Assembly (NCBI GenBank): GCA_016185545.1
Contig: JACPNJ010000005.1
Span: 271,717 to 335,716, forward strand
Source: Candidatus Yanofskybacteria bacterium
Lineage (GTDB): Bacteria; Patescibacteriota; Minisyncoccia; 2-02-FULL-40-12; IGHO2-01-FULL-4-A
Direction: 5' to 3'
Length of the DNA: 64,000 nucleotides
The notes beneath the pieces are model-generated. The model worked only from the letters and a program-made list of their open reading frames with translations. It made no database searches and was not told where the DNA came from. Positions 18,750-46,515 of this stretch are shown piece by piece (the stretch's first letter is position 1; each line of letters begins with the position of its first letter). The translations under genes were made by a program, and so were the position numbers.

Positions 18750-18755
18750 TCGTTT

Positions 18756-18787
18756 AATCCGTTAGGGGGGTGCCTTCTAACGGGATT
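18756..18787 (-). promoter_or_regulatory. CCGTTAG hairpin 6 nt upstream of arsR-like start
   Basis: aatccgttag gggggtgcctt ctaacgggatt. Confidence 0.5.
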
Positions 18788-18839
18788 CATTGATTATTAG
18801 TAGAACTTAACATAAGTTGAATGTTTGAGCAACTACTCA

Positions 18840-18868
18840 AGTATACTGCCAAGCAAACATAAAGTCAA
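18840..18868 (-). promoter_or_regulatory. Near-consensus sigma70 promoter (TTGACT-17-TATACT) reading toward arsR-like gene
   Basis: The reverse complement reads TTGACTTtatgtttgcttggcagTATACT. The same 30-nt motif recurs at 20838-20866. Confidence 0.45.
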
Positions 18869-18949
18869 GCAAAAGCAATGTAAAAGAGAAAACCGAACCA
18901 ATTTCTGTTGGAAAGCACGAGTTATTCGTGAGTTTGCGCTTGGGATTGA

Positions 18950-19314
18950 TTAAATAATAAGTGTTTCCCAGCCGCTTGCGATGCGCGCGCCGATATCCGG
19001 ATGGCCGTTGTTTTCATCCATAAAATTTGCTCCAAGCGCCTTGAGTTCGTCCTCTACTTTGAATGCCTTGGAGCAAAAAGAGCACACGCCTTTAACGACA
19101 CCGCCCTCAAGAAGTTCTTGGTAGAGTCCTTTGAAGTGATCGTTCTTGGGAAACTCCGCGGCCCACTGTGTGCCGCCACCGTCAAATATGAGCTCGACCT
19201 CCAGGCCTTTTGCTTTTGCCTGTTTGGCTTGGCGTAAAGGAGCGCGTGCAAAGCGCGACCCATATTTTCGTGCGTGCTTTTGTCCGCCAGCAAAATGATT
19301 AAAAGTTTTTTCAT
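18950..19314 (-). pseudogene. DsrE/DsrF-like family gene interrupted by a 1-nt frameshift
   Basis: The N-terminus MKKLLIILLADKSTHENMGRALHALLYAK runs in one frame. GLEVELIFDGGGTQWAAEF...VCSFCSKAF...GHPDIGARIASGWETLII continues in another frame after an A-rich run near 19195-19215. Confidence 0.5.
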
Positions 19315-19472
19315 GAGTATTTATTTTAATCTGTTAATTTATTTCCAGCAAAATATCAATTAAATTTATAATTAAATGCTAATAAGCGTATCGTTGCGAA
19401 ATATGGGCCCCACCTCGACGCCAATCTCTGGCCCACACCCCGTTTCTTAACAAGACGCTGTTTGCTATGTCT

Positions 19473-19796
19473 TTAACGGGATTGTGTTATTTGTCGTTTT
19501 ACAGTACCAAAGAGAGGCGACTCTTTATCAATGCGATAATAAACGGATTTAATGTCCCTTCTTGATTTTACCAAACAACACTTTCTAAGCGCCTTCAGAG
19601 AGTGAGAAACAGCGGAAACGGAAACCCCTACCAACCCAGCGATCTCTGACACTGACAGTTCCTTATGTTTGCACAACAAATAACAAATCTTCATTCTTGT
19701 TAAATCGCCGAGAACATTAAAATCACAAGCGCATTTTACGAGGGCCTTTTTATTGCTAAGCTCTTTTTTTATTCTATTTCTGGTTTTTATATCCAT
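19473..19796 (-). CDS. arsR: ArsR-family metalloregulator with CxCD metal site
   Basis: KCACDFNVLGDL matches the ELCVCDL-type arsenite-sensing motif; HTH follows. Confidence 0.75.
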   Translation of the reverse strand: MDIKTRNRIKKELSNKKALVKCACDFNVLGDLTRMKICYLLCKHKELSVSEIAGLVGVSVSAVSHSLKALRKCCLVKSRRDIKSVYYRIDKESPLFGTVKRQITQSR

Positions 19797-19916
19797 CCCG
19801 TTAGAGACAGGTTGCGACTCTGTCGCAACCGTACCAAATTAATTTATAATTACTTCCCGTTTAAGTACAATAGCCACCGCTTTTTAGTTTTCGATACGCG
19901 CTATGTCTCTAACGGG
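19797..19916 (-). promoter_or_regulatory. CCCGTTAG terminal-inverted-repeat leader element abutting the arsR start codon
   Basis: cccgttagagaca (19797-19809) and tgtctctaacggg (19904-19916) flank an inner hairpin ggttgcgactctgtcgcaacc. Confidence 0.6.
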
Positions 19917-19927
19917 ATCCACTGGTA

Positions 19928-20512
19928 TTATTGGTTATATTTACTTGGCAGATTTTGACGACCCCAACGAAGCGTTTTGGCCATCCAAACCAGCTCTTCA
20001 AGAAAATTATCTACTCGCCGATAAACGGCTTCTTCTTTGGGTTTTCCGTTTTCATCAAAAAAATCTTGGACCTTGAAAAAGTTAAGGTCAGAAAATGTAA
20101 CCGCCAAACCAAGTTCCCTGACAACCTGAACCAGTTGTTCAATAACCCGCGCTCCTCCAAATCCGCCGGCTGATACGCCGACAAGTCCGACTGTTTTGTG
20201 AATATATTCCTTAAGAAGAACATCAAGAGCCCGCTTTAAACTTCCCGGGTAGCCATGATTATACTCCGGCGCAATGACAATAAGCCCGTCGGCACGGATT
20301 ATGGCATCGCGCCACTTTGTATTTTTTTCTTTCAAACCGCTATAACCCCCTTCGTCATCCATCGGCAAATCCATTTCACGCGGATCAAAAAGTTCCGTTT
20401 CAATTTCGGTATGTTTGGAAACCTGTTCAAATAAAAACTTAGCAACTTTTTCGCTTTGCCTATCTTTCCGGACAGTACCCAAAAGAATCGGTATAAATAA
20501 TTTTCTATCCAT
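19928..20512 (-). CDS. NAD(P)H-dependent FMN reductase (ArsH/SsuE-like flavodoxin fold)
   Basis: IVIAPEYNHGYPGSLKRALD motif. Confidence 0.75.
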   Translation of the reverse strand: MDRKLFIPILLGTVRKDRQSEKVAKFLFEQVSKHTEIETELFDPREMDLPMDDEGGYSGLKEKNTKWRDAIIRADGLIVIAPEYNHGYPGSLKRALDVLLKEYIHKTVGLVGVSAGGFGGARVIEQLVQVVRELGLAVTFSDLNFFKVQDFFDENGKPKEEAVYRRVDNFLEELVWMAKTLRWGRQNLPSKYNQ

Positions 20513-20837
20513 ATTGATTGAATGGTTACTGAAATTATATTCTAGCTATTAATATTTGACAATAAATAAATATTTCTGGATTAAACTTTCAGGAGGAAGA
20601 ACGATTTCGTTCTTCCTCCTGTGTTCCAGCCCTCGCTCTTTCTAATAAGAGGAGGGCTCCATACAGCAGCCCTCTTGGCAGTGGGCTACCGCGCGCAGGA
20701 ACCACTTTTTGCGCTGTGGCATGACTTTTCCCTCCTTTCCCTATGTAGTTGCTATAGACCAATGGACTTTTTAAGTCCGTGGCAATTTAGCAACCCATAG
20801 CAAGACAAGCAGGTGTTATCATTTGAACAACCATTCA

Positions 20838-20866
20838 AGTATACTGCCAAACGGACATGAAGTCAA
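20838..20866 (-). promoter_or_regulatory. Second copy of the TTGACT-17-TATACT promoter motif, followed by a ~300-nt structured leader
   Basis: The reverse complement reads TTGACTTcatgtccgtttggcagTATACT. The leader at 20513-20830 contains a perfect 12-bp hairpin (20591-20620). Confidence 0.4.
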
Positions 20867-20900
20867 TGTGGATAAAAATTACCCCTTTTGAAGGGGTAAT

Positions 20901-21602
20901 TTATTTGTCATCATTTGGTTTTTCTTTCAATAGCGCTTCGGTTCCTCCTCTGGTGCCGACCCTGGCAACATGTTTTTCTTCAAATTCGTTTATTTCTCCT
21001 TTGCGCGCTTTAATCAGCATGGCATAATTCATTAAATTACGGGCCATCACGTCTAGCATCGCTTTGGTGGCTTGATTTTTGCGGCGCTTTGTCGCGTCCA
21101 CATTCATGCCTCCGCCAACCTCGCCCACCCAATAAGCGACACTCTCGGGCGGTATGACAAATCCGAGCCACTGCAAGAAATTATACAAATTCCCTACAAT
21201 ATGCTGAACTCCGTCTTCGTGGCCGGTAATAACCAAACCGGCGACTTTATGATAGAGATCTGATTTTCCGGTCATAATATACGACTCGTCAAAATGAGTC
21301 ATTCGTTCCATAACTCGCTGAATCAAACTTGATTGTCCGCCCCACCAAATGGGCGTGGCGAAAATAACAATGTCCGCTTGTCGCAAAGCGTCGGCAATTT
21401 TGAGCCATTCATCGTCGTCAGACATCTTTTCCTCCAAGCCCACCGGAATATTCATATTGGCCAAACGAAACTTCTCTACCTCAACTCCATATTCGGCAAA
21501 ATGATTCAAAAGATCATTAACAAGCTCATCAGTATTAGACGGCTCATTCCCGGTCTTAAGAGTTCCCAATAAAACTATTGCTTTTAGTTTTTGTTCCGCC
21601 AT
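20901..21602 (-). CDS. Flavodoxin-like NAD(P)H:quinone oxidoreductase family protein
   Basis: IVIFATPIWWGGQSS motif. Confidence 0.7.
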   Translation of the reverse strand: MAEQKLKAIVLLGTLKTGNEPSNTDELVNDLLNHFAEYGVEVEKFRLANMNIPVGLEEKMSDDDEWLKIADALRQADIVIFATPIWWGGQSSLIQRVMERMTHFDESYIMTGKSDLYHKVAGLVITGHEDGVQHIVGNLYNFLQWLGFVIPPESVAYWVGEVGGGMNVDATKRRKNQATKAMLDVMARNLMNYAMLIKARKGEINEFEEKHVARVGTRGGTEALLKEKPNDDK

Positions 21603-21605
21603 AAT

Positions 21606-21839
21606 TTATTCGGTATTTATCTTGCAAAATTTGCAAAACTTGTGCCAAAAGTCAGGATGATCAACAATTAACTCTTCCAGTATAGCAAATGGGATAACGA
21701 TAACAACGGCTCCCAATACAACACGGGGATTTATTATTTGATCGGTCAAAAAATGCAAAGACAACAAATTGTCGGCCAGATTGGATATCAGACCAAAAAT
21801 TATAAATTCTAAAATTCTGAATTTAGTCCGTGTTTTCAT
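21606..21839 (-). CDS. Small hydrophobic protein
   Basis: 77 aa, two TM segments. Confidence 0.35.
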   Translation of the reverse strand: MKTRTKFRILEFIIFGLISNLADNLLSLHFLTDQIINPRVVLGAVVIVIPFAILEELIVDHPDFWHKFCKFCKINTE

Positions 21840-21845
21840 GAGGTT

Positions 21846-22229
21846 TTATTTTATCTGCCACTTGAAAATTAAATAGGATAAGATGCCAAGCTGAATAGTT
21901 GGCGTTAGGCCGGTATTTATCAACGGAATAATGGGCATAAATTCATTATACGCCCATCGGCCGGTTTTTAAAGCAGATAACTCTATTATAATTGCAACGA
22001 TAATGCCCATCAGCAACACATACCATTTTCTTTCTCTAAAGTAGACGATCTTAATAAATAATATGGCTAAAAGTGTTATAAAAACTGCATCAAAAAGTGT
22101 AGCTCGCAACAAAATGAGTCGAGTTATTTCTCCTGCCTTATAATGGATATACAGATATGAATGAAGATTTTCCCAAACCAAATTCAGTAAAAAGGCAACT
22201 GCAAATATTATGGAAAGTTTTTTGATCAT
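21846..22229 (-). CDS. Multi-pass membrane protein
   Basis: Four TM helices. Confidence 0.4.
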   Translation of the reverse strand: MIKKLSIIFAVAFLLNLVWENLHSYLYIHYKAGEITRLILLRATLFDAVFITLLAILFIKIVYFRERKWYVLLMGIIVAIIIELSALKTGRWAYNEFMPIIPLINTGLTPTIQLGILSYLIFKWQIK

Positions 22230-22304
22230 AGTCCTATTTTATATGATATATCTAGGTATTTAAATTGAGCTGAGAGCATTGGCAAGATCTTAACTAAATT
22301 CCAG

Positions 22305-22865
22305 CTATAATCTCCAACACACTGCCTTCGGTGTCCACACCCCATAATGGAAAGACTCGGGACCGTCAATTATACAGTAATCGGACCCGCCATCCCAAGC
22401 CGGATCCCTAAATTGAGAAAAATATTTTCCTTGGGGATGGGTTATAAGCTTAAAATCTATCCCGTCAGACGCATACACCCACGAATGGGCAATACCTCCA
22501 CAATTCAGGGATGGATCACTGGGCAATCTGAGGATGTATTTGGGAGCAAGGCCGGGAATATATTCCTGGCCAGAGCATTCCATCAGCTTAACTAACGGCC
22601 CTCCCGGCTCAAAGGTTTTAGGATAATTATAGTTTTCGGAACGATAAACCTCCAAAGCGATCTGAAGCTGTTCCAAATTAGTAATACGGGTCGTGTCTCT
22701 ATTTTTTAACCGTATTACATTTAATTGAATTGCAAATTGAGTTGATAAAATTCCCATAATTGATATGACCACCAAAAGCTCTATTAAAGTGAATCCTTGG
22801 TTATTTTTAATTATTTGGTAAATTTTCACTTGGTAAATTTTCCCGTAAATGGCTTTGAATACCAA
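22305..22865 (-). CDS. Type IV pilin / pseudopilin (prepilin N-terminal methylation motif)
   Basis: G|FTLIELLVVISIMGIL class III signal sequence. Confidence 0.7.
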   Translation of the reverse strand: MVFKAIYGKIYQVKIYQIIKNNQGFTLIELLVVISIMGILSTQFAIQLNVIRLKNRDTTRITNLEQLQIALEVYRSENYNYPKTFEPGGPLVKLMECSGQEYIPGLAPKYILRLPSDPSLNCGGIAHSWVYASDGIDFKLITHPQGKYFSQFRDPAWDGGSDYCIIDGPESFHYGVWTPKAVCWRL

Positions 22866-23067
22866 TAGTTTCTTCAGGATACTTTATTTGTAAAGATTTA
22901 TAAACAAAATACAAGCCAACCGACAGCGATATCGAGAATATCACAATAACCCATATCAATTTTTCTATCAAAAGATCTTTTTCTGACTTAATAGAGCCGG
23001 GTTTATATTGTAAGAAGGGAAAATTAAACTTCTTGTTAAAACCTAATATTTTTTCTAGTATCCTCAT
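22807..23067 (-). CDS. Hypothetical small membrane protein
   Basis: ORF with one TM; overlaps the pilin 5' end. Confidence 0.3.
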   Translation of the reverse strand: MRILEKILGFNKKFNFPFLQYKPGSIKSEKDLLIEKLIWVIVIFSISLSVGLYFVYKSLQIKYPEETIGIQSHLRENLPSENLPNN

Positions 23068-23457
23068 ACTTATTATTTTAAATTATTCCTGAAAAATTGA
23101 GAAGTGTATGCAGACCACAAGCCAATTCTGTCGCTTTGGGAGATAATAATTCTCTCAAGAAAAATTATCTTGAAAAAGTCGGCTCGAACCCCCAGCTCAC
23201 GGAGCGAGCGGTTTCGGTTTCGTTCAAAAATGACTGGCAAATTCTCGCTGAATTCAATGCCGAGCGGCGACTTGTCCGCTGAAGCCCGCAGGGCGAAGGA
23301 GGAAGCCGCGAGGCAACTTCTGATGTTTGTATTACTTGGCTGCGGAGTTAGAACACTCTCAAACTCTGAAGGAGAACAAGTTCCCTACGGGGCATGCTTT
23401 TGAAATCATCTTACCAAATCTGATACACAAATCCAAAAAGCGAAATCTCCGCTGATT

Positions 23458-26142
23458 TTACGGAATTTGCAGAGGCAGAGATGGTGCAAAAACTTTTTTC
23501 TTAGAAAACTCAATGAGCAAAATTTCCACCAAGCTTATGCTAAAGATAATTGACCACTCAATTATATCCAGCGGCTGGGTAGATAAAAGTTTCTGCAGTG
23601 GCGGCAAGTAAATCGCGCCAATGAGCAACAGAAAACTTATGACCACCGCCCCGACAAGATAACGATTTGAAAAGATATCCTTTCTGAAAATAGTTCGCTT
23701 AAACGAGCGGACGCTGAACACGAAAACGAGAGAATCGAGACCCATAAGGGCAAATACTATTGTCCGTGTTTTTTGTATGTCGCCCGTCAGTTTCCAAAGG
23801 ATAAAGAAAGAAAGAAATGCCGCTATCCCCGTAATTAAAAATATGGCGGCCATCCAATGCTTCATGGGTTTATTCAGTATCGGCTCTTTTGGATTTCTGG
23901 GCTTCTCTTCCATCACTCCTTTGGTTTCCTGCTCGATGGTAAGGGCGATATCAGGGAGGCCGTCTTCCACGAGATTGATCCAAAGAATTTGCGCAGGAAG
24001 CAACGGCAGCGGAAATCCCATCGCCATGCTTCCTAAAAATAAAAAGAGTTCGGAAAAATCATCGGCAACTAAATACACGAAAACTTTTCGGATATTACCA
24101 AAGACAACTCGGCCCTGCTCGATCGCTTTTACCACGGTTTTGAAATTGTCATCCAAAATAACCAGATCAGCCACTTCTTTCGCCACATCGGTGCCGGAAC
24201 CGACCGCCACACCGATATCCGCGGCTTTCAAGGCCGGCGCGTCGTTTACCCCGTCTCCAAGCATCGCCACCACTTCCTCGTTTGCCTGAAGCGCGGCAAC
24301 GATTCTTAATTTATGACGCGGGGAAACGCGGGCATAAATGGAAAGATGTTTGGCTTTTTCTCTCAATTTCTCGTCGCTCGTAGTTTCCAACTCTTTGCCG
24401 TCAATTATGTTTTCGTCTCCGGCGTCAAGGCCGATTTCTTCGGCAATGGCTTTGGCGGTTAATCGGTGATCGCCGGTTACAATGACGGTGCGGATTCCGG
24501 CCTTTTTGGTGATTCTAATATATTCTTTGGCATCTTGGCGAAGGGGATCTTTTAGGGCGATAAATCCCACCAGCGTGAGTTCTTTTACCAAGTCGGCAAG
24601 ATTTTGGTATTTTGTGTCGGCGTTGTAATCCTTGTGAGCGCAGGCAAGCACTCGCAATCCTTTTTGAGTCAGCGATTCGAATTTTCGGATCAATTTGTCG
24701 AATTCCGAAGTGCCGAGTTTTTCTTTTCGTCCGTCAATATCCAAATCAATGGAACGCGCGATGATTTCTTCCGGCGCGCCTATGACATAGAGCGAATTTT
24801 TATATTCGCTTACGCGATGGAAAGCGGCGGCGTATTTATAGTCCGACTCAAAACTGATCCTATCGATGACCGGGTATTGTTTTTCGAGTTCGTGCTTGTT
24901 TAAGCCGGCCTGCATTCCCGCTAAAAGCAGGGCACGCTCGGTCGGTCTACCGCGCATTATCCATTCCTGCAATTCGGCTTCTGGATTTTCTACAAAGGCA
25001 TCGTTTGCCAAGGTGGCAATTTTGAGCGCGGCAATGTGGGATTCTACTCCGTTGACATTCTCTCCTTTGGCAAGTCCATTAAGACCGTCGCTCATCAATT
25101 CCCTCGTGCTCGTCAAAATATGGCTCACTTGCATCTTGCCCTCGGTTAGCGTGCCGGTTTTATCGGTACAGATAACGGTTACGCCACCCAGTGTTTCTGT
25201 CGCAGATAATTTTCTTACTAAGCCGTTTGTTTTGAAAATGCGCCGCATTCCCAACACAAGAATAACGGTTATCGCTGGAAGCAAGCCCTCCGGGATTGCC
25301 GAAACCACCAAAGCCAGAGATGCCACAAAAACCTCTGCTAAATTTTTCTCGGTGAAATAACCTTCAATGAGAATAATGAAAATAATAGAGAGAATAAAAA
25401 CGCCGAGCCAGCGCGAAAGTAAAACGATCTTTTTTTGAAGCGGGGTCTGCCGCTCTTTTGTTTCTTTGAGGAGCGAAACAACTTCGCCGATTTGCGTATT
25501 GATTCCCGTTGCAACAATAACGGCAGTTGCCCGTCCTTCTTCAATAATCGTTCCCATGAAAATCATGTTGTTTCGCTCGGGAAGCGGCGCGTCTTTCGGG
25601 AGTAAATCAACAACTTTCTTTTCAACTGCTTGGGATTCACCAGTGAGGCTGGCCTCATTTATTTTCAGACCCTTTGAATTGATAATTCGGCCATCGGCTG
25701 GCACTTTGTCGCCTGATTGTAAAAGCACGATGTCTCCCGCGACCAATTCCTCGCCGTCAATTTCTTTCTCATAACCATCCCGTAAAACTCTCGCTCGGAT
25801 TTTTACCATTCTTTTGAGAGCTAGAAGCGATTGGTTGGCTTTATTTTCTTGATAAAACCCGACGGTTGTATTAATGAGCAAAACAACAATTATAAATATA
25901 GAGTCGGAGTAATGTCCTAACGAAAAAGAAATGAGCACTGTTGTGATTAGGATATACATCAAAGGACTATTGAACTGACCCAAAAAGAGCCGTATTTTTG
26001 AATACGGTTTTTCTTGGGGAAGAGTATTGCGTCCGGATTTTTTCAGCCGCCGATTTGCTTCCGAATCGGTAAGCCCGATCTCTTTCGTTTTTAATTCAGC
26101 GACAACACTGTTCAGTGGAATCGCATACCAATTTTTACCCAT
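23458..26142 (-). CDS. P2-type cation-transporting P-type ATPase (Ca2+/Mg2+-type)
   Basis: DKTGTLT phosphorylation site, TGES, GDGVNDAPALK hinge, 10 TM. Confidence 0.9.
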   Translation of the reverse strand: MGKNWYAIPLNSVVAELKTKEIGLTDSEANRRLKKSGRNTLPQEKPYSKIRLFLGQFNSPLMYILITTVLISFSLGHYSDSIFIIVVLLINTTVGFYQENKANQSLLALKRMVKIRARVLRDGYEKEIDGEELVAGDIVLLQSGDKVPADGRIINSKGLKINEASLTGESQAVEKKVVDLLPKDAPLPERNNMIFMGTIIEEGRATAVIVATGINTQIGEVVSLLKETKERQTPLQKKIVLLSRWLGVFILSIIFIILIEGYFTEKNLAEVFVASLALVVSAIPEGLLPAITVILVLGMRRIFKTNGLVRKLSATETLGGVTVICTDKTGTLTEGKMQVSHILTSTRELMSDGLNGLAKGENVNGVESHIAALKIATLANDAFVENPEAELQEWIMRGRPTERALLLAGMQAGLNKHELEKQYPVIDRISFESDYKYAAAFHRVSEYKNSLYVIGAPEEIIARSIDLDIDGRKEKLGTSEFDKLIRKFESLTQKGLRVLACAHKDYNADTKYQNLADLVKELTLVGFIALKDPLRQDAKEYIRITKKAGIRTVIVTGDHRLTAKAIAEEIGLDAGDENIIDGKELETTSDEKLREKAKHLSIYARVSPRHKLRIVAALQANEEVVAMLGDGVNDAPALKAADIGVAVGSGTDVAKEVADLVILDDNFKTVVKAIEQGRVVFGNIRKVFVYLVADDFSELFLFLGSMAMGFPLPLLPAQILWINLVEDGLPDIALTIEQETKGVMEEKPRNPKEPILNKPMKHWMAAIFLITGIAAFLSFFILWKLTGDIQKTRTIVFALMGLDSLVFVFSVRSFKRTIFRKDIFSNRYLVGAVVISFLLLIGAIYLPPLQKLLSTQPLDIIEWSIIFSISLVEILLIEFSKKKVFAPSLPLQIP

Positions 26143-26291
26143 ATATTTTTATTGTGGTATTTCTCAATCTTTTTTGTAGAAGGACTAAAAATTTCTTTAG
26201 AAATAGAAATGGTATTACCTAGGGTAGCGGGGTCATTAATTTTGTATTCAACATTGTCCATTTTAACTTTAGGTTCTAACTTACTAGCCTC

Positions 26292-26597
26292 CTAGATTAA
26301 ATAATTTCGTAATTGCTTTTTTAGATAAGTACGGCCAGAACCACTTTTCAAAAACTTCTCTCGACCTACTGCATCACGTCTATCAAGATAGGCTTCAGCG
26401 TAAATAAGTTTCCATTCGCCACTCTTTATTCTTGTGGTACGACCGCCTTGTTTAATATTATGCTCCTCGATACGCCGTTTTAAGTTATCGGTTTGCCCGA
26501 TATACCAAGATTTATCATTTTGATTTTCTAAAAGGTAGACGGTAAACATAAAATTGGCCCCGAAAAGTTCACTTCGTTCACCTCGGGGCTCACTCAA
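26292..26597 (-). CDS. GIY-YIG nuclease family protein (UPF0213-like)
   Basis: FTVYLL...WYIGQTDNLKRRIEEHN GIY-YIG core. Confidence 0.7.
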   Translation of the reverse strand: MSEPRGERSELFGANFMFTVYLLENQNDKSWYIGQTDNLKRRIEEHNIKQGGRTTRIKSGEWKLIYAEAYLDRRDAVGREKFLKSGSGRTYLKKQLRNYLI

Positions 26598-26650
26598 AAT
26601 AACGTTCTCGGCTCGCCACGAGATGAGCGAGCCTGCGAGCGAATTTTTCG

Positions 26651-26724
26651 TGGCTGCCGGGCTTGGATTCGAACCAAGATGATGTGATTCAGAGTCACAT
26701 ATCCTACCGTTAGATGACCCGGCA
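26651..26724 (-). tRNA. tRNA-Gln (CUG)
   Basis: Cloverleaf: acceptor UGCCGGG/CCCGGCA, D AUCU/GGAU, anticodon stem UGUGA/UCACA with loop CUCUGAA, T CUUGG/CCAAG with UUCGAAU; CCA encoded. Confidence 0.7.
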
Positions 26725-26795
26725 AATTTACTTAACTTTATAACAAAAAAGACGTTTTTACAACGCCCTAATTATCAATTACCAGTTACTAATTA

Positions 26796-27704
26796 CTAAA
26801 TCTTGAGGTGTTTTCTTATCGCAATCGCGCTTGAAACCATACCGAGAAACATACCGAGTAGAGTTACCATCAACACAACCTGCGGCACTCCTGTAATAAA
26901 ATAACCGAAGAGATTAATGCCGGGCGCAAAAGCCGCTATTTTATCGGAAGCAAAATAAACAGCAGGGTAAAAAATGGCAAGAGCGATAAACGCCGCGAAC
27001 AATCCATACAATCCCCCCTCGGCCAAATACGGCCCGCGGATATGCCAGTTGGAAGCGCCGACCAGCCGCATTATTTCAATCTCCTGCTTCTGGCTGAAAA
27101 TTGTGAGGCGAACAGTATTAAATGTCACTAAAACGGCAACCAGGGCAAGCACCAACGTAACTATCAAACCCCAGCTTCTGACCCCGCGTGAAATACTTTC
27201 AATTCTATCAATTACCCCCCGATTTTCATAAAAATTAATTTTGTCAATTACACCGCGCAGAGAACTATTTTCCAAAAATTGAGCAATTGACGCGTACTGT
27301 GACGGATCTTTAGTTTTTATATTAAGTGACGCCGCTAGGGGGTTAGAGTCAAGCTGTTCCAATGACTCTTGGATCAGCTCTTCTTGCGCGTGGCGCGCCT
27401 TGAAATCAGCCAAAGCTTCTTCCTGTGAAATATAGGTTACATCGGCTACTTCTGGAAGTATTGAAAGGTCGGATTTAATTTTAAGCGCCTGCTCTTCGGT
27501 GGCATCAGTTTTGAAGTAGGCACTGATGTCAATTTTTTCCTGCAGTGATGTAACGACTTGCAAACTTAAAAACTGAAGCGACAAAAGTCCAAGAAACAGA
27601 ACCAAAACCAGCGCCATAATACTGGTCGCGGCAAAACTTAAATAGCTATTTCGCTTAAAATTCGTCCACCCGGAATCAATAATTTTTTTGAAATTTATAG
27701 CCAT
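26796..27704 (-). CDS. ftsX: Cell division permease FtsX
   Basis: Four-TM FtsX topology with large periplasmic loop; downstream of ftsE. Confidence 0.75.
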   Translation of the reverse strand: MAINFKKIIDSGWTNFKRNSYLSFAATSIMALVLVLFLGLLSLQFLSLQVVTSLQEKIDISAYFKTDATEEQALKIKSDLSILPEVADVTYISQEEALADFKARHAQEELIQESLEQLDSNPLAASLNIKTKDPSQYASIAQFLENSSLRGVIDKINFYENRGVIDRIESISRGVRSWGLIVTLVLALVAVLVTFNTVRLTIFSQKQEIEIMRLVGASNWHIRGPYLAEGGLYGLFAAFIALAIFYPAVYFASDKIAAFAPGINLFGYFITGVPQVVLMVTLLGMFLGMVSSAIAIRKHLKI

Positions 27705-27824: not shown

Positions 27825-28508
27825 TTAGATTACGTAGCGACCGTTATGGGTCTGGTCGCGGACTATCTTCCCCCTATCCATACTCACCACCCTTTTCCCG
27901 ATAGAATTAACGATATTAGTATCATGCGAAGCCAAAACCACCGTCGTGCCAAGCTCGTTTATCTTCAATAATAATTTTACCACATCATAACTGTTAACCA
28001 AATCAAGGTTACCGGTCGGTTCATCGGCCAGAAGTATGCTGGGCCGGTGTATCATGGCGCGTGCAATCGCCAGCCGTTGTTTTTCACCGCCGGATAACTG
28101 CTCCGGGAAACTCTCTAACTTGTCACCCAATCCCACAATAGATAAAATCTGCGGCGCATCTTTCTCTATTTCTTCAGGCGCGGCATCAGACACCTCCATG
28201 GCAAAAGCAACATTTTCGTAGGCAGTTTTTCTGGATAATAACTTAAAATCCTGATAAACCGTGCCAATTTTGCGTCTTAAGTAGGGTATTTCTCTGTCCC
28301 TTATTTCGTCCAAGTCAGCACCTTCAATAAAAACCTTGCCGGATGTCGGACGTTCCTCTTTGGTCAGCATCTTGAGAAGGGTTGATTTACCCGCACCCGA
28401 CACCCCCACCAGGCAGACGAACTCCCCGGGTTTGATTTCCAGGTCAATGTTATCCAAAACCACATTGTGCGGTTCATATATTTTTTTTACTTTTTGGAAA
28501 CGTATCAA
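27825..28508 (-). CDS. ftsE: Cell division ATP-binding protein FtsE
   Basis: Walker [13 protein letters not shown] signature LSGGEKQR, Walker B ILLADEPT. Confidence 0.85.
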
Positions 28509-28559
28509 AAGCTATAAAGCTATAAAGTTATAAAGTTATAAAGCGGATGCTTTAAAATT
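28509..28559. repeat. Octamer tandem repeat spacer (gctataaa)2(gttataaa)2 between prfB and ftsE
   Basis: Seen directly in sequence. Confidence 0.85.
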
Positions 28560-31470: not shown

Positions 31471-31473
31471 ACA

Positions 31474-37082: not shown

Positions 37083-37087
37083 GGATA

Positions 37088-39766: not shown

Positions 39767-39883
39767 CTTATTTAATTATACAATGAATCTCACTTTGCTA
39801 GCTGTGGATTGCCGCTCCACCGTTTCAAAAATAAAAGCCCCGATTGGGGCTCTGAAAAAAAGGGCGGTTTCGGTTTCAACGCG

Positions 39884-40414
39884 CTACTGATTCCTGTATG
39901 AGCCAACGAACATAGCTGCGCCCGCTCCAACCTTGTTTCCTCTCAAATCAATGTCGAAACGATTTGCCGCCATTTGTACGGCCATATAGGTACGGCCTAA
40001 TTCAATTGCAAGTTCGTGGATGCTCATGGATTTGCCATGTTGCTCTAGAAATTCAATTTCCTTTATTGTCCATCGCTGCCAGTGGTTTTTGGCTAAAGGC
40101 CGGGTTATATTCTGATGAAAATCTAAAATCTTTTTTCTTTCTTTGCTCTTTATTTCCGGATTCTTTTTGAGCCATTCTCGGCGTCTTTCGGGATATTTTT
40201 GGCGGAATTTAGAAATAGAAGCGCTTAAACAGCTCGGATGTCTTAAATCCATAGCAATATTGGCGACATACTGGTAAGAAGACCGGATTCGCTCTGCTAT
40301 TTCTTTATAGTTAAGTCCTTCTTTTAAAAGAGCCGCGATTTGCTGCCTTTTTGTCACAATTTCACCTCCGAAGCTCAATAGCCAAACACACCATACAGTA
40401 TCATTCATTAGCAA
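39884..40414 (-). CDS. Putative HTH DNA-binding protein
   Basis: Two helix-turn-helix-like segments; overlaps the GT4 start by 14 nt. Confidence 0.35.
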   Translation of the reverse strand: MLMNDTVWCVWLLSFGGEIVTKRQQIAALLKEGLNYKEIAERIRSSYQYVANIAMDLRHPSCLSASISKFRQKYPERRREWLKKNPEIKSKERKKILDFHQNITRPLAKNHWQRWTIKEIEFLEQHGKSMSIHELAIELGRTYMAVQMAANRFDIDLRGNKVGAGAAMFVGSYRNQ

Positions 40415-41480
40415 TCATGTCAACTATCTTGGTTTTGAAAATCGTTTTATCAAACTCAAGGGCGTGGGTGCGGATGGCGGCAGAATCCCATTGGGTCTGA
40501 TAGTATTGGCCTACTGCTTGGGCAAGAGCAATCTCGGTTTGTTCGTCAAAGAATATACCGGTTTTATTTTCTAAAATAGTTTCCAATGCTCCGCCGCCGT
40601 GATAGGCAATTACTGGCCGTCCGGAAGCCATTGATTCAAGCGGGACAATGCCGAAATCCTCTTCTTGCGGAAAAATCACTGCCTGCGCATGGGCATAAAG
40701 TTCCGGCATTTTGTAATCCGAAACCAAACCAAGGAAACTTATATTCGGCTTAGCCATTTTCTCCAACCGCTTGCGTTCCGGGCCATCACCGACAATTTTA
40801 AGGGGTTTCCCTATGGCATTGAATACCTTGACTGCCAAGTCAAAACGTTTATATGGCACTAGCCGACCAACCATTAAAAAATAATCTCCGGCTTCGTTAC
40901 TTATATAATATTTATGAGCATCAACCGGCGGATAGATGACTTCGGCATCGCGATTATAATATTTTTTGACTCTGGATTTCACAAAATTTGATATCGCCAT
41001 GAACTTGTCAACCCGCAATGCCGCCTCTTGGTCCCAAATACGAAGATAGGTTATGAAAAACGGCACAAGTTTTCTAATCGGCCAGGGATGGTTGAATTCT
41101 TCAATATAACGATGGCTATCATCCCAAAGAAATCTTGTCGGGGTCAGACAATAATTAATGTGTTTGGCATACGGTTTGGTTATGATGCCCTTGGCAAAAG
41201 ATGCCGATACCGACAAAACGATGTCATAATACGACAAATCAAACTGTTCAACCGCAAACGGCATAAGAAGTGAAAAAACACGGTGGTATTTGCGCGCGAA
41301 AGGAAGTTTTTGCAAAAAAGAGGTGTGTATCTCGCGGTTACAAAAAACACCGCCGGTCATACGCTCATCATAAAGCAAGGTATAAATCGGGGCATCTGGA
41401 AAAATCTCGCACAAAACCTCCAGCACTCTTTCTGCTCCCCCATACTGATTAAGATAATCATGAACCAAAGCAATTTTCAT
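40401..41480 (-). CDS. Glycosyltransferase family 4 (GT-B fold)
   Basis: N-terminal MKIALVHDYL...GGAERV and C-terminal E-x7-E type motif. Confidence 0.8.
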   Translation of the reverse strand: MKIALVHDYLNQYGGAERVLEVLCEIFPDAPIYTLLYDERMTGGVFCNREIHTSFLQKLPFARKYHRVFSLLMPFAVEQFDLSYYDIVLSVSASFAKGIITKPYAKHINYCLTPTRFLWDDSHRYIEEFNHPWPIRKLVPFFITYLRIWDQEAALRVDKFMAISNFVKSRVKKYYNRDAEVIYPPVDAHKYYISNEAGDYFLMVGRLVPYKRFDLAVKVFNAIGKPLKIVGDGPERKRLEKMAKPNISFLGLVSDYKMPELYAHAQAVIFPQEEDFGIVPLESMASGRPVIAYHGGGALETILENKTGIFFDEQTEIALAQAVGQYYQTQWDSAAIRTHALEFDKTIFKTKIVDMIANE

Positions 41481-41586
41481 CCCGTTAGAAGTGGCAATAG
41501 CGACATATAAACTAAACTTACAATCGCTGTTTTAACTTTTATTAAATAAAATTTGATTCGCGAACCCGTTAGGGCTACTTCTAACG
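41481..41586 (-). promoter_or_regulatory. CCCGTTAG leader element abutting the GT4 start codon
   Basis: cccgttagaagtggc at the ATG; distal aacccgttagggctacttctaacg. Confidence 0.6.
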
Positions 41587-41664
41587 AAATTCGTTGCTCA
41601 AAGCGTACCAAATTTATAAGCAAAAACAAAACCGGTTTACTGACTGACGAAATATTAATATTTA

Positions 41665-43086
41665 TCAGGCTGCGGATTTATCACGGAAAATTTTAAGAGC
41701 GGTTAGGATAATGATTTTGATGTCGTGCCAAAAAGACCAGTTTTCAATGTAAAACGTATCCAAGGCAACTTCTTCTTCAAAGGGCAAATCCGAACTGCCG
41801 GAAATTTGAGCTATTCCGGTTACGCCGGCTTTAATTGCTAATACGCGGCGGTGACGTTTTTGGTAACGCTCGATCTCGTCCGGCTGATGGGGACGCGGAC
41901 CAACGAGTGAAATTTCACCTTTTAACACATTCCATAATTGCGGAAATTCATCCAGACGGTAACAACGCAGAAAACGTCCGACACCGGTTATGCGCGGATC
42001 ATTTTTAATTTTGAACAACGGACTGTCGGCGCGCTCGTTAAATAAAATCAACTGTGCTTTATATTTTTCGGCGTCTTTCATCATTGAACGAAATTTGTGC
42101 AATTTAAAAAGTCTGCTTCCGCTTAGTCGGTCCAGATGGACAAAAACCGAACCTTCTGTTTCCCATTTAATCGCAAACGCGACGATCCCAAAAAAAGGCG
42201 CCAATATTACCAACCCGATCAGTGAACCGATAACATCAATTATCCTTTTGGTAATTCTCCCCCATCCGTCCAACGCCGTTCTTTTAAGTTCCACCAGCGG
42301 CACACCGGCCAGCGCGTCAAAAGCAAAATTTGCCGTCAAGGTCTGATAAATATTAGGTACGAATCTGAAGGTCAAATGGTTTTCGTGGCAAAATTCCACA
42401 ATTTCTATAACTTTATCGGCGGGATAATTGGGATTTGCCAATAAAACCTCATCAATCCCCGGGTTACCGATAGCAGATTTAACTTCAGCCACTTCGGGAT
42501 TGCTCAAATGCTTGACTATGCGATAACCGAAAGCCGGATTATCCCTGATATGCCGGACAACTTTTTGGGTAGTCTGGTCCTCGCCGATTATCATAACTTT
42601 GTGTATGCCAAAGTCACGCTGAGAAACAAGATATTTCTGGATATAGCGCATAATCAATCGCCCCAGCGAAACGAAAATAATTGTAAAAAACCACGCACCT
42701 AAAACCAAAAATCTGGAATCAAATAATTCCTGCCTTAAGAAAATAAAGATGATGATCGCCATTATACCGGCTGATGACGCAATCACAACTTTGGAAAATT
42801 CTTCAAGGGTTTTGCGCGTACTGGTAAGTTGGTAAAGCCCGGAAACGGCATAAGTAACAATGAACACGGCCGACATAACAATTATTAAAATCAAATATCT
42901 CTCAAACGGTAAGTTGAATTCAAAAAGCACTGGCCTGAATGATGACAATATCCGGGTACGCAAAAAGTAGGTGGTAATACCCGCCGCCATCAGCATCACA
43001 AAATCCACCGGCAAGAGCAACGTGCTGAATATGAGTTCACTGCGTTTCATTGGAATAAAACTACAACATAAAGAAACAGGATTCAA
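41665..43086 (-). CDS. Polyprenyl-phosphate glycosylphosphotransferase (WbaP/CpsE-like sugar transferase)
   Basis: Five TM plus a C-terminal bacterial sugar transferase domain (KRIIDVIGSL...GPRP). Confidence 0.85.
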   Translation of the reverse strand: MNPVSLCCSFIPMKRSELIFSTLLLPVDFVMLMAAGITTYFLRTRILSSFRPVLFEFNLPFERYLILIIVMSAVFIVTYAVSGLYQLTSTRKTLEEFSKVVIASSAGIMAIIIFIFLRQELFDSRFLVLGAWFFTIIFVSLGRLIMRYIQKYLVSQRDFGIHKVMIIGEDQTTQKVVRHIRDNPAFGYRIVKHLSNPEVAEVKSAIGNPGIDEVLLANPNYPADKVIEIVEFCHENHLTFRFVPNIYQTLTANFAFDALAGVPLVELKRTALDGWGRITKRIIDVIGSLIGLVILAPFFGIVAFAIKWETEGSVFVHLDRLSGSRLFKLHKFRSMMKDAEKYKAQLILFNERADSPLFKIKNDPRITGVGRFLRCYRLDEFPQLWNVLKGEISLVGPRPHQPDEIERYQKRHRRVLAIKAGVTGIAQISGSSDLPFEEEVALDTFYIENWSFWHDIKIIILTALKIFRDKSAA

Positions 43087-43121
43087 GCCACTAAAAATCG
43101 CGTGTTGCGCGATTTTTAGTG

Positions 43122-43670
43122 GCTTGGTAAATCTATAAGCCGAATTCTGTCACCCTTCGCTCGGCTATGCCGAGCTTCGGACGGACAAGTATTTGTGCTT
43201 GTCCTCCGTAGCTTTAGCGTAGGATGGATGATTATTTATCTGGGCCAATTATCGCTAATTAGCTCTAGCGTACGAACTTTTCGGGGTATCGCATTGCTGT
43301 GATACGACGCTGTACTTGCACTAGGCAGGGTTTAGCGCGACACCCATGTTGCCATGGGGCGTTCCCGTTCGGGAACTTTTCACCCGCAGTCCTCGGACTT
43401 GCGCCAAAGGAGCTCGGAATAGTTTCTGTGCCACTTTCCCTAAGCTTCGATTAGTAGCTCTTCTCTTAAGAGGAAGAAGTACCAACCTTATACTCGGTGG
43501 CCGTTAGCCACTGCCTTGCTGACGCAATCACTAATCACTAACCTCCAATCACCAATTTTGTTAGTAATTGACGACTAGCAGTTGGTGATTGCGTCAGCGG
43601 TGTTCGGACTTTCCTCTACCTTGCTCTTTCCAAAGAAAGGGCTGGGCAGAAATCACCCGATTTACCAAGC
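43122..43670 (-). ncRNA. rnpB: RNase P RNA (bacterial), unusually long (~550 nt)
   Basis: P1 pairing GCUUGGUAAAUC / GAUUUACCAAGC. P4 strands GAGGAAAGUCCGAACACC and ACAGAAUUCGGCUUA. GGGUGAAAAG J11/12-like segment. Long extra helix at 43500-43605. Confidence 0.7.
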
Positions 43671-43678
43671 TAATTTAA

Positions 43679-44119
43679 TTATAGCAATTTATTCAGCTCT
43701 TTGTCCAGTGCTGCATTCACCAGCTTGTCGGCACCGCGATTGTCTTCGCGGGGTATATGCTTGAAAATCACATCAGCAAAATCCACCTTTAGATTCCAGA
43801 GTTCAATAAAATGCTTCTGGATATTTTTATCCATAATTTTGTAATAGCCATTTAGCTGACGCTCAAGAAGTTCGCTGTCAACATGCGCTTCTACCGTAAC
43901 TTCGCCGACGGCCTTCTTGCCGATTAAAAGTTTCAATTTTTTCAAAGCAAAAATTACCGCACGATATTCGGCATCGTTATTGGTGGTTTCACCGATATAT
44001 TCGCCGTATTCCTTCTTGAACGATCCGCCACCGGCCTCAATCACCACACCAATTGCCGCCGGCCCCGGATTGCCACGCGAACCGCCATCGGTATGAATTA
44101 TATATTTTAATTCAGCCAT
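43679..44119 (-). CDS. rnhA: Ribonuclease HI
   Basis: HTDGGSRGNPG, NNDAEYRAV, HIPREDNRGADKLVN catalytic DEDD residues. Confidence 0.8.
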   Translation of the reverse strand: MAELKYIIHTDGGSRGNPGPAAIGVVIEAGGGSFKKEYGEYIGETTNNDAEYRAVIFALKKLKLLIGKKAVGEVTVEAHVDSELLERQLNGYYKIMDKNIQKHFIELWNLKVDFADVIFKHIPREDNRGADKLVNAALDKELNKLL

Positions 44120-45062
44120 TTTTATTCAAATATTCTATAATTTCTCCGGTAATTTTCATAATTTCTTTTTTTGAATTACTTTGGGTAGCGCCCACGTTTT
44201 TGTGACCGCCGCCTTTGTATTTTGACATCAACTCTCCAATATTCGTTTTTTCAGATTGACCAATCCAAGGATTTTTGCCTACACCAAGATGGTAATAATC
44301 ATTTCCCTTGCCCCTTTTGAGAATAACAGAATACTTAACACTGGGGTATAAGAAGTAGCTCATATAATGGGAAACATCAGGGCTAATATCAGAAACATCA
44401 AAAAAAATCGTAGAACCATAAGGCTTGGAAATAGTTTTCAAATCTTTAATCAACTTTTTTAATTTTAATATAAAATCAGAAACTCTTGTTTTGATTCGCG
44501 GCTCTTTAACTATTTTAGCCATAGATTTTTCCGCAAGTTTTTTTATTAAATCATGCGTGTTTTTAGAATTATTCTCGTCGGTGACAATAGCCATAAGTTG
44601 AAAAGCTGGTTTGCTATAACTAATGGCTTCTCGGGCGGATTTATAGCCAGCGGCATCAATAATGTCAGCCCATTTGGCCAATTCTGCAATATGTTTAGGC
44701 AGTTTAAAACCAAAATGTTTTTTAAGGTGGGCCAAAATAAGACCGCAACAAGATTTACGCTTCCGGTCCCAGCAATGTGTTTGATCATTTCTGAAATGTT
44801 TTTTCCATTCCGTTTTAACAAGCCGCGGAAATGACACTTCGTGATGATCAAACCACCAATCGGCTTTGGGATGATAACGAAAATCAACCAGAATAAATGG
44901 CTTTTTGAATTTGTAACCAACCCAGCTTGCTATTAATTTGGGGGTATAATCAATGGGGTTGAAGGACGCGATACTATCGCCGCGAGAATACAAAAAATTA
45001 AGTATTATTGCTCCCGATGCCGTACCGTCAAAATCGTTGTGATAGTAAAGATGATAATTCAT
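44112..45062 (-). CDS. DHH-family phosphoesterase (NrnA-like, DHH + DHHA1)
   Basis: HNDFDGTASG motif I, WWFDHHE motif III, GGGH DHHA1 motif. Confidence 0.75.
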   Translation of the reverse strand: MNYHLYYHNDFDGTASGAIILNFLYSRGDSIASFNPIDYTPKLIASWVGYKFKKPFILVDFRYHPKADWWFDHHEVSFPRLVKTEWKKHFRNDQTHCWDRKRKSCCGLILAHLKKHFGFKLPKHIAELAKWADIIDAAGYKSAREAISYSKPAFQLMAIVTDENNSKNTHDLIKKLAEKSMAKIVKEPRIKTRVSDFILKLKKLIKDLKTISKPYGSTIFFDVSDISPDVSHYMSYFLYPSVKYSVILKRGKGNDYYHLGVGKNPWIGQSEKTNIGELMSKYKGGGHKNVGATQSNSKKEIMKITGEIIEYLNKNG

Positions 45063-45110
45063 AAAATCCTAATTACCTTTTTAAAAGCGATCGCTTTTAA
45101 AATAACATTC

Positions 45111-46367
45111 CTAATTTTTATAATAATCAAGAACCTCTAACCCAGGCAGCCTGTTGCCGGCTAAAAATTCTAACATTGCCCCTCCGCCGGTTGAGACGAA
45201 ACTATAGCGGTCAAGTAAATCCAGCTTGTCTACTGCGGCAACAGTATCCCCGCCGCCAACAATAGATTTCGCCGCCGAAGCCACTGCTTTGGCAATGTCG
45301 CGGGTACCCTCGGCAAAAACTTCCACTTCTGATAATCCCATCGGCCCGTTCCAGATTACCATCTTGGCCGTTTTTATAATTTCGGCGTAATGTTTTGCCG
45401 TCTCCGGTCCGATATCAAGAATCAGATGACTGGAATCAATATTTTCTATCGGAGAAGTCTCTGCGCCAGAATCGCCAGTTTTATCTTCTGAAATCAAAAC
45501 ATCTTCCGGCAATATTATTTTCTCACTTTCCACGTCAAGCAAAAATTCATTATCAACCATTGACGCACCAACATTTATTCCCCGAGCCTTAAAAAAATTA
45601 TTGGCAACCGCACCGCCAATCAGGATTTTTTCCGCTTTATCCAAGAAATTTTTGATTACCGGCAATTTGGTTGAGATTTTAGCGCCACCGAGAACTAAAA
45701 CCTTACCGTCAACCGGCGCCTCCAGCGCCCGTCTAAGACTTTCGGTTTCTTTTTTTATTAAAAATCCGGCAAAAGAGGGTAGGTGTCTGGTTATTGCCAC
45801 AACGGATGCATGATTGCGATGCATTACCGCAAAAGCGTCATTTACATAATAGTCAAAACCGTTCGACAAGCTCACGGCGAGTTCCTCATTATTTTGAATC
45901 TCGCGCGAATTTTGGCGAATATTATCCAGAAGTAAAAGTGGGCCAACTCCAAAAAGTTTATCAACCCCGTACAAGGCAGAGGCACGCTGCGTGCCCTCGC
46001 GGCCTCGTTCGGGGTTAATTCCGTCCAATTCAGAATGCGGCACCAATGTAAGTGTTTGCCCCAAAATTTCACCCAACTCTTCAACAATCGGGCCAAAACT
46101 TGCCCCCGAAACATCATGCCCCAAGTGGCCCACCAATAAAACTTTAGCACCGAAGCTAATCAAATAATCAATCGTCTCCTTTTGCGCTTTGATTCTGAAA
46201 TTATCACCGATCTTGGTTAGCGATTGGCGACCTGCCCCGTAGGGAGACAAAGTCTCTCCTTCAGGGTTGGTAGTTGGTGATTGCGTCAGCGGCACGTCAA
46301 AATCAACCCGCAACAGGATTTTTTTGTTATTAAGCTCTTCTTTTTTTAATTCGTTAATATATTTCAT
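45111..46367 (-). CDS. pgk: Phosphoglycerate kinase
   Basis: RVDFDVPL, GHLG, GGGD and hinge motifs. Carries an in-frame ~20-aa insertion near the N-terminus. Confidence 0.9.
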   Translation of the reverse strand: MKYINELKKEELNNKKILLRVDFDVPLTQSPTTNPEGETLSPYGAGRQSLTKIGDNFRIKAQKETIDYLISFGAKVLLVGHLGHDVSGASFGPIVEELGEILGQTLTLVPHSELDGINPERGREGTQRASALYGVDKLFGVGPLLLLDNIRQNSREIQNNEELAVSLSNGFDYYVNDAFAVMHRNHASVVAITRHLPSFAGFLIKKETESLRRALEAPVDGKVLVLGGAKISTKLPVIKNFLDKAEKILIGGAVANNFFKARGINVGASMVDNEFLLDVESEKIILPEDVLISEDKTGDSGAETSPIENIDSSHLILDIGPETAKHYAEIIKTAKMVIWNGPMGLSEVEVFAEGTRDIAKAVASAAKSIVGGGDTVAAVDKLDLLDRYSFVSTGGGAMLEFLAGNRLPGLEVLDYYKN

Positions 46368-46515
46368 CCCGTTAGAAGTAGCTGCTTGCCCCGCAATTCG
46401 CCAGAGGCGATGGTTCGGGGCTGCGCAGTTTTACACACAAGTTGCGGCCGCACAACAAGCTTAAGATTATTTACAAATTATATTTGCAAACCCGTTAGGG
46501 CTACTTCTAACGGGA
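46368..46515 (-). promoter_or_regulatory. CCCGTTAG leader element filling the tpiA-pgk spacer, abutting the pgk start codon
   Basis: cccgttagaagtagc at the ATG. Distal cccgttagggctacttctaacggga can pair either locally or with the ATG-proximal copy (15-bp perfect). Inner hairpin gccccg...cggggc. Confidence 0.6.

Follow-up and report, generated by a model that had tools for sequence, protein, structure and literature searches.

A family of small, probably mobile palindromic elements at start codons, mostly in Patescibacteria

The window analysed here is a stretch of 64,000 nt from Candidatus Yanofskybacteria (GenBank assembly GCA_016185545.1, contig JACPNJ010000005.1, positions 271,717 to 335,716), and the subject is a small palindromic element that lies directly in front of four of its genes and is probably a mobile insertion that rebuilds the start codon it interrupts. 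The window has a G+C content of 42%, its genes lie nearly all on the minus strand and a Shine-Dalgarno sequence is absent before most of them. The PGK it encodes matches a protein from a Candidatus Yanofskybacteria MAG at 100% identity. The window contains 10 occurrences of the motif CCCGTTAG where 1.4 would be expected, none of 100 shuffles reached 10, and the longer arm (TCTAACGGGAT/ATCCCGTTAGA) occurs exactly eight times. Read on the gene strand the element has the form ATCCCGTTAGA…TCTAACGGGAT; the window contains four full copies (E1 to E4) and one remnant (E5), and in all four full copies the closing AT of the element is also the AT of the downstream gene's ATG. The features are as follows.

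18670..18786, minus strand: E4, full element of 117 nt preceding an ArsR-like gene and ending CTAACGGG + ATG; proximal arm 18670-18680, distal arm 18776-18786, new ATG 18671-18669.
18787..18790, minus strand: distal flank of E4, ATGA, comprising the retained old start and the duplicated base; it opens an 18-codon open reading frame (ORF), MNPVRRHPPNGLNEWNIE.
19440..19482, minus strand: E5, remnant mini-copy, ATCCCGTTAAAGAC...GTCTTGTTAAGAAACGGGG.
19795..19918, minus strand: E1, full element of 124 nt with an FMN-reductase gene (stop 19930-19928) on one side and an arsR-family gene on the other; proximal arm 19795-19805, distal arm 19908-19918; the last AT and G19794 form the arsR ATG.
19810..19830, minus strand: P2 hairpin of E1, GGTTGCGAC-AGA-GTCGCAACC, with TAC before it and one T and then the 14-nt proximal arm after it.
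19919..19922, minus strand: left flank of E1, GTGG, the counterpart of the usual retained ATGR, with the old start codon now GTG.
41479..41590, minus strand: E2, element of 112 nt preceding a GT4 glycosyltransferase gene; proximal arm 41479-41489 intact, distal arm 41580-41590 degenerate (TTCGTTAG; TCTAACGAAAT).
41565-41572, minus strand: internal competing arm of E2.
41594-41592, minus strand: old start at E2, decayed to ACG.
46366..46516, minus strand: E3, element of 151 nt filling the tpiA-pgk spacer; proximal arm 46366-46376, distal arm 46506-46516.
46491..46498, minus strand: internal third arm of E3 (CUAACGGG on the mRNA), which can pair locally with the distal arm as a competing hairpin.
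47942..47945, minus strand: empty target ATGA at the stop/start overlap of the GalT and VTT-domain genes.

An earlier note on this DNA had placed motif elements at 19797-19916, 41481-41586 and 46368-46515. These exist on the minus strand and each abuts an ATG, but their exact limits are 19795-19918, 41479-41590 and 46366-46516, with arms of 11 nt that include the terminal AT; a supposedly reduced copy at 18756-18787 turned out to be the mere distal end of the full E4, which also ends at an ATG. The genes downstream are functionally unrelated, as had been claimed: two belong to the ArsR family, one encodes a GT4 glycosyltransferase and one PGK. The N-termini of PGK (MKYINELKKEEL...) and of the GT4 protein (MKIALVHDYL...) are canonical and their orthologues begin at the same residue; judged by this comparison, the ATGs that follow the elements are the true starts of both genes. 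The ATG at 18671-18669 is likely the true start of the ArsR-like gene, with the ArsR domain downstream of it. For this gene the longest-ORF rule adds 26 N-terminal residues (18672-18749, minus strand) from an ATG at 18749 inside E4, and automatic annotation may often choose wrong starts for element-bearing genes in Patescibacteria.

The family was sampled in two independent scans. The first, of one genome per species, looked for two exact 11-nt arms 85-115 nt apart and gave a sample of 137 copies; the second, of metagenome contigs, gave 125. Exact pairs of 11-nt arms were found at no fewer than 120 genome loci and no fewer than 120 metagenome loci, where a back-of-envelope estimate predicts about one chance match. 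Elements are 82-151 nt long and contain no transposase, only short unconserved ORFs. Among the matches listed, the hosts are mostly Patescibacteria of many classes, including Yanofsky-, Kaiser-, Nomura-, Zambryski-, Jorgensen- and Wolfebacteria within the Paceibacteria, as well as Saccharimonadia and Levy-, Kerfeld- and Moranbacteria; beyond this phylum the same matches comprise two Omnitrophota, two Sedimentisphaerales (Planctomycetota) and one WOR-3 bacterium. No copies were present in the viral contigs scanned, Rfam gave no match to the element (the window at gathering score, four copy-bearing loci at E<=1), and the searchable literature yielded no description of the arm sequences or of an equivalent element targeting start codons.

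The placement of these copies, put forward in the earlier note as a test, is not random: 95% of them supply the start codon of a genuine gene. An ATG stands at exactly one end of 248 of the 262 sampled copies. In the genome sample this was true of 130 of 137 (both ends in 4, neither in 3), and the new ATG nearly always opens a long ORF, the exceptions being mostly the first member of a tandem pair; in the metagenome sample it was true of 118 of 125, with 110 of the 118 opening an ORF of at least 60 codons or running off the contig. The window contains 285 ATGRA pentamers, made up of 21 start codons, 47 intergenic and 217 intragenic sites. If ATGRA were the target and only intragenic insertions were purged, start codons would account for 21 of the 68 non-intragenic sites, i.e. 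~31% expected against ~95% observed. Where the arms are imperfect, the mutation lies in the distal terminal AT and not in the AT that belongs to the ATG. In an arm variant, ACCCCGTTAGA...TCTAACGGGGT, the second base pair is altered in a compensatory way and the junction reads GTG in place of ATG; copies of it lie at loci L050 (432-512), L071 (3875-3896 and 4166), L003 (7481) and L072 (7467).

Drawn with the gene on the right-hand side, the element and its flanks are ...A-T-G-R / ATCCCGTTAGA ... TCTAACGGGAT / G-R-A..., the slashes marking the ends of the element. The left ATG is kept in 209 of 246 copies, and in 192 of 246 the dinucleotide before the element, mostly GA or GG, is the same as that after it; a few duplications are of 1 bp (G) or 3 bp (GCA). 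E1 retains a 2-bp direct repeat, the GG of its GTGG flank recurring after the new AT (ATGGAT). In 91-93% of copies the base at position +3 is A, and the flank consensus and the duplication together identify the target as the pentanucleotide ATGRA.

Filled and empty versions of the same site were found in relatives of the window genome. The tpiA-pgk junction is filled in the window (...ttgtgATTAA[T...element...]ATGAAatat), where ATT now stands in place of the old start codon and 3 nt separate E3 from the TGA stop of tpiA on its upstream side; in the relative GCA_016181175.1 (loci L121/L122) the junction reads ...ttgttATGAAgtat, with an ATGA overlap and no element. The GT4 start is likewise filled in the window by E2 and empty in two relatives (L121 and L125), which begin ATGAAAATTGC, while the GalT/VTT overlap is empty in the window and holds a copy of ~70 nt in the relative at L121. 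As far as sequence comparison can establish it, the element is shown to insert into ATGRA at a start codon, its terminal AT and the duplicated G rebuilding an ATG in front of an unchanged coding sequence.

Copies with 85-98% interior identity occur at loci with unrelated flanks, and their flanking dinucleotides may be GG in one and GA in another; such variation within a subfamily is as expected of a true target duplication. Tandem copies are spaced by exactly GA because each insertion recreates the target. The suggestion in the earlier note of a MITE (miniature inverted-repeat transposable element) is thus borne out by terminal inverted repeats, target-site duplication, empty orthologous sites, near-identical copies at unrelated loci and a huge family: by these marks, the elements are non-autonomous, MITE-like mobile elements. 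At L072 (7263-7580) one copy is nested in a second, degenerate copy, a case of repeated insertion in the same region. In other Yanofskybacteria a reverse transcriptase gene (RVT_1) lies directly upstream of pgk (L123/L124, 7021-8686, and L125/L126), accompanied in L123/L124 by a bAvd-like gene in what resembles a diversity-generating retroelement cassette; its presence at the junction occupied by E3 makes tpiA-pgk seem a recurrent insertion site.

A 2-bp duplication that varies within subfamilies favours a DDE-type transposase acting in trans, while the palindromic junction with an asymmetric core and the orientation bias described below keep a site-specific recombinase in play. In the fetched loci no arm stood unpaired as a sign of a longer element; candidate autonomous partners at L072 and L087 proved to be nested or indel-bearing copies. 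A 317-aa ORF at L121 (16470-17423) with a Pfam HTH_38 match, taken as IS30-like, was rejected, its terminal repeats being unrelated to the arms. A 176-aa ORF in the window (39884-40414, minus strand) has weak HTH_23/HTH_38 matches.

The ends of the element pair over 14 bp to form helix P1, which in the mRNA would bury the AU of the new AUG. The outer 11 bp of P1 were fixed by the search pattern and only positions 12-14 were free to vary; these covary between A-U and G-C, are more than 90% Watson-Crick paired and occur in all eight combinations. Compensatory changes between copies, another check proposed in the earlier note, are present: when 46 copies of the 122-nt class are aligned without gaps, P1 turns out to be 99.7% paired and each variable pair shows 18-21 double changes, and no shuffle or slid register approaches the observed signal. 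On the 3' side P1 is followed by an unpaired YCU bulge and then by a second helix, P2, which takes one of two forms. The first is a local hairpin, TAC-GGNNNNN-loop-NNNNNCC-U-P1, built from many different stems, and the P2 of E1 has this gene-proximal layout, which is typical of the family; the second is a long-range helix in the same register, 69% paired. P2 stems covary. The asymmetric interior faces the gene one way in 167 of 181 diagnosable copies, with 14 inverted, and the remaining interior is A-rich on the gene strand and poorly conserved.

Most copies are intercistronic, 156 of 225 having a same-strand ORF of at least 80 codons that ends within 90 nt upstream, and the element is consequently very probably within mRNA. 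The label of 5' UTR leader is imprecise given that most copies sit between cistrons in operons, in very small spacers or at stop/start overlaps. About half of the upstream ORFs end within 16 nt of the element or inside its distal arm; the retained ATGA provides the stop (TGA) for 16 of them, and a TAG within the distal arm that for 14. The proximal arm, ...UC-UAA-CGGG-AUG-A, treats the three reading frames differently. Frame one meets a UAA stop 4 nt before the AUG; frame two stops at the UGA of AUGA (A occupies that position in 72% of copies); and frame three continues in frame into the gene.

Peptides from the retained ATG begin M-N/D-P-V-R. The ORF that it opens reaches the arm UAA in 52 of 209 copies, compared with 13.1 expected from dinucleotide shuffles, and the UGA overlap in 15 compared with 4.6, while there is no preference for running into the gene (4 copies, 4.7 expected). 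The excess of ORFs that reach the UAA suggests translational coupling. In addition, 72 copies have a stop-free interior in the frame of the old ATG against 22 and 20 in the other frames; interior stops number 360/259/212 by frame (p ~1e-9), an imbalance that is still significant after both ends are trimmed and that replicates in the second sample (217/192/114). Of the three phases, the one that sets the old ATG in frame with the gene is the rarest (24 copies against 39 and 50; 16 against 26 and 54 in the second sample), and at the commonest element length, 122 nt, the old ATG is in phase with the UAA.

These data allow a model in which ribosomes, whether initiating at the old AUG that has been kept or coming in from the upstream cistron, would carry translation into the element and melt P1. 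They would then terminate at an arm stop, which is either the UGA of AUGA or the UAA that stands four nt ahead of the new AUG, and reinitiate at the new AUG; at E3, a ribosome ending at the tpiA stop, 3 nt from P1, may serve likewise. With frame three also running into the gene, an insertion would be nearly silent for the host gene. The element seems to be tolerated because ribosomes often read through from the old start and stop beside the new one. It is considered probable that the family is a mobile start-codon element that rebuilds the ATG, forms P1 and P2 in the mRNA and leaves the gene to be expressed by termination-reinitiation, the last of these being suggested by the reading-frame statistics. 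An internal promoter combined with a 5' stem-loop, to which the AT-rich interior and the TAC before P2 might point, is not supported by the numbers of sigma-70-like sites (31 on the gene strand, 27 on the opposite strand), and no sigma-70-like promoter was seen inside the window copies. A possible Bacteroidetes-type -7 motif (TAAATTTGGTACG) was noticed in E1 and upstream of E2.

Several observations weigh against this interpretation. A full read-through ORF is present in only about one third of the copies that retain the ATG and in none of the four window copies; the old ATG has been lost from three of those four, yet pgk must be expressed. In both P1 and P2, G-U mismatches are as frequent as A-C ones, meaning that the helices could be selected in DNA rather than RNA. 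No known mechanism acting on DNA accounts for the bias towards true starts as opposed to the other intergenic ATGRA sites. An element with symmetric ends moved by a DDE-type enzyme should insert both ways, so that the 92% bias in orientation needs selection or an orientation-specific mechanism, and neither a transposase gene flanked by the arms nor a long arm pair was found in ~1.8 Mb of fetched loci. Finally, elements of the same subfamily are non-independent data points.

It is unlikely, all the same, that these are purely selfish MITEs with no role in expression, for which placement would follow from a preference for ATGRA plus purging and the hairpin would be no more than a pair of transposase binding sites. 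Such a reading accommodates the full set of MITE hallmarks, the equal frequency of wobble and A-C mismatches in the stems and the window copies without intact read-through ORFs. It predicts roughly a third of copies at start codons, far from the proportion observed, and it is also at odds with the preponderance of one orientation, with compensatory change at arm positions 12-14, which would be needless for protein binding alone, and with the frame-specific depletion of stops and the length bias in phase with the arm stop, both replicated in an independent sample.

A site-specific recombinase module, of the tyrosine or serine type, is a quite improbable alternative. Here the joined ends, TCTAACGGG-ATGRAT-CCCGTTAGA, would be an 11-6-11 site like dif or lox that recombines with ATGRA at gene starts, the asymmetric core setting the orientation. 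The junction of tandem copies has exactly this form of palindrome plus core, no transposase-bearing parent was found in the loci searched, and both the orientation bias and the regeneration of the target follow naturally, as in elements that rebuild the end of a tRNA gene. Staggered-cut duplication nevertheless fits better with GG or GA flanks within one subfamily and with a spacer that varies from 1 to 3 bp. There are also no conserved arms at the targets, and no recombinase gene is linked to any copy, although no integrase search was made.

The riboregulator or thermosensor proposed in the earlier note is very unlikely. In that proposal the distal arm toggles between a local hairpin and the long-range helix, exposing or hiding the AUG in response to temperature or a factor. 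The long-range pairing that it described as perfect is so in E3 and E1, but the distal arm of E2 is degenerate and E4 pairs over 13 bp; E1 has no local hairpin, E2 and E4 have imperfect ones and E3 alone has a perfect one. In E3, and less exactly in E2 and E4, a copy of the proximal arm does stand immediately after the distal arm, an arrangement that recurs with unchanged orientation in the Yanofskybacteria-type copies at L056, L089, L107 and L121 (14896), and the local hairpin would form first during transcription. However, the predicted fold of the whole element transcript is dominated by the long-range helix. Forcing the proximal arm and AUG open costs 12.6 kcal/mol in E1, 10.9 in E2, 19.5 in E3 and 12.0 in E4, and the proximal arm is predicted to be paired from 10 to 50 C in all four; the alternative structures are thus not thermodynamically competitive, the outcome that the earlier note had named as refuting a switch. 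The loop of the local hairpin is complementary to the extension of the proximal arm and would speed strand displacement towards P1. The internal arm (AACGGG) is present in only 13 of 128 copies (~10%), as a trait of the Yanofskybacteria-type subfamily, and there is no conserved interior or core resembling a ligand-binding site and no Rfam match. Within that subfamily the internal arm is consistently positioned, and on this ground it may have a kinetic, co-transcriptional role.

That the arms are an immobile host site in cis, an operator pair or invertible promoter (inverton) bound by a conserved protein, is extremely improbable despite the conservation of the arms across phyla and the few copies with inverted interiors, given the empty orthologous sites and flanking duplications, the near-equal numbers of sigma-70-like promoters on the two strands, the unrelated functions of the downstream genes and the fact that inversion is limited to 14 of 181 diagnosable copies.

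The mobile start-codon element favoured here can be set beside known systems. It resembles the Correia/NEMIS elements of Neisseria and the ERIC/IRU elements of enterobacteria, MITEs of ~100-150 bp with terminal inverted repeats, a short target duplication and many dispersed copies without transposase, which form a long hairpin when transcribed and can alter the expression of neighbours. Unlike these, the present family inserts exactly at the start codon, rebuilds the ATG and carries arm stop codons beside the new AUG; its arms are not confined to one genus but span many patescibacterial classes and a few further phyla, its interiors are highly variable and it has no known parent insertion sequence. 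REPIN/RAYT systems share hairpin-forming inverted doublets of ~100 nt with conserved ends and no autonomous copy with the same ends, presumably moved in trans by a single-copy enzyme, but REPINs are extragenic without start-codon precision, have lineage-specific sequences and make no target duplication.

Other parallels lie in translation. Rickettsia palindromic elements (RPE) are also small palindromic mobile elements tolerated through ribosomal reading, but they are inserted in frame and translated within the host protein, whereas here the element lies upstream of a regenerated start and in-frame read-through is disfavoured. The byp elements of Magnusiomyces mitochondria and the gap of phage T4 gene 60 are structured, probably mobile inserts with matching end codons that are neutralised in translation; the proposed process here is termination-reinitiation at an adjacent stop and start rather than ribosome hopping, and the duplicated codon is the start codon. 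Translational coupling in operons (AUGA, UAAUG) likewise has a stop 4 nt before the next AUG or overlapping it, and a masking helix that an upstream ribosome can open, but in this family the signals are carried by a mobile element and installed on insertion.

Integron attC sites resemble the element in having conserved short inverted cores (GTTRRR/YYYAAC-like: GTTAGA/TCTAAC), an interior that varies but is comparable in length, and a hairpin whose conserved architecture leaves bases unpaired on one strand. The cores come in the opposite order, however, being GTTAGA...TCTAAC on either strand as opposed to RYYYAAC...GTTRRRY, and on this arm order membership of the attC class was rejected; the element also stands at scattered gene starts in ordinary operons rather than at the 3' ends of arrayed cassettes, and neither an integrase nor attI is linked to it, although no search aimed at an integrase was made. 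An IS200/IS605-type PATE or REP was likewise rejected, as the flanking dinucleotides match on left and right and vary within a subfamily, and the ends pair with each other instead of forming separate hairpins. An archaeal-type bulge-helix-bulge intron and a leaderless-mRNA promoter in the arm were set aside, each being at odds with the order of the arms, the duplication in the flanks or the sequence; base pairing between the arm and either 16S rRNA or initiator tRNA also appears to conflict with these features.

A parallel is known in elements that enter tRNA genes and restore the end of the gene, and, if confirmed, the present family would be a transposable element whose practical target is the start codon and which repairs its own damage. 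A broader proposal is put forward only tentatively: that it represents an undescribed mobile class which homes to start codons throughout the Candidate Phyla Radiation and outside it, with 11-nt ends that carry all that is needed to remain harmless, namely a replacement AT, stops in two frames beside the new AUG and a helix that ribosomes from the old AUG would open. Four of the ~68 genes in the window bear an element. If the proposal were true, up to several per cent of the genes in some tiny genomes would be expressed via a leader ORF installed by an element, with termination-reinitiation coupling, and start-codon recognition acting on DNA would call for a targeting mechanism of a new kind. 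Leader ORFs and translational coupling may arise naturally from the elements in organisms where genes largely lack Shine-Dalgarno sequences. The shared 11-nt ends could mark exchange of DNA among uncultivated lineages, and an enzyme able to recognise ATGRA where genes begin could serve as a tool for targeting.

Back-to-back mini-hairpins of two arms 8-10 nt apart occur either alone, as in E5 and at L121 (14896-14930), or at the distal end of full copies, as at 46491-46516, 41565-41590 and 18758-18786 in the window (all minus strand). They are confined to Yanofskybacteria-type copies and could be footprints of excision or deletion. The arsR ORF (19473-19796) stops at a TAA at position +7 of the E5 distal arm. 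Downstream of E5, between E4 and arsR, two overlapping ORFs of 45 and 86 aa (18950-19314, minus strand; no Pfam match for the 86-aa one) resemble a single frameshifted or decaying gene.

Repeats of other kinds are found elsewhere in the window. In the ribosomal-protein stretch at 47,900-62,700 most intergenic spacers hold tandem repeats of period 7, sometimes 9, in 4-10 copies, e.g. TAACCTG and its relatives on the gene strand. These arrays end at or just before start codons, often with two different arrays adjacent, and lie at 53253-53279, 57619-57653, 60108-60138, 58714-58746, 54404-54473 and 48968-49041, with another at 28508-28544. They recall the intergenic heptamer repeats that are reportedly present in Beggiatoaceae. 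A match to RNase P RNA at 43120-43668 (minus strand) spans 549 nt against a model of 367 positions, which indicates that this RNA carries large insertions, one of which contains a CAATCAC repeat of 4.6 copies (43525-43556).

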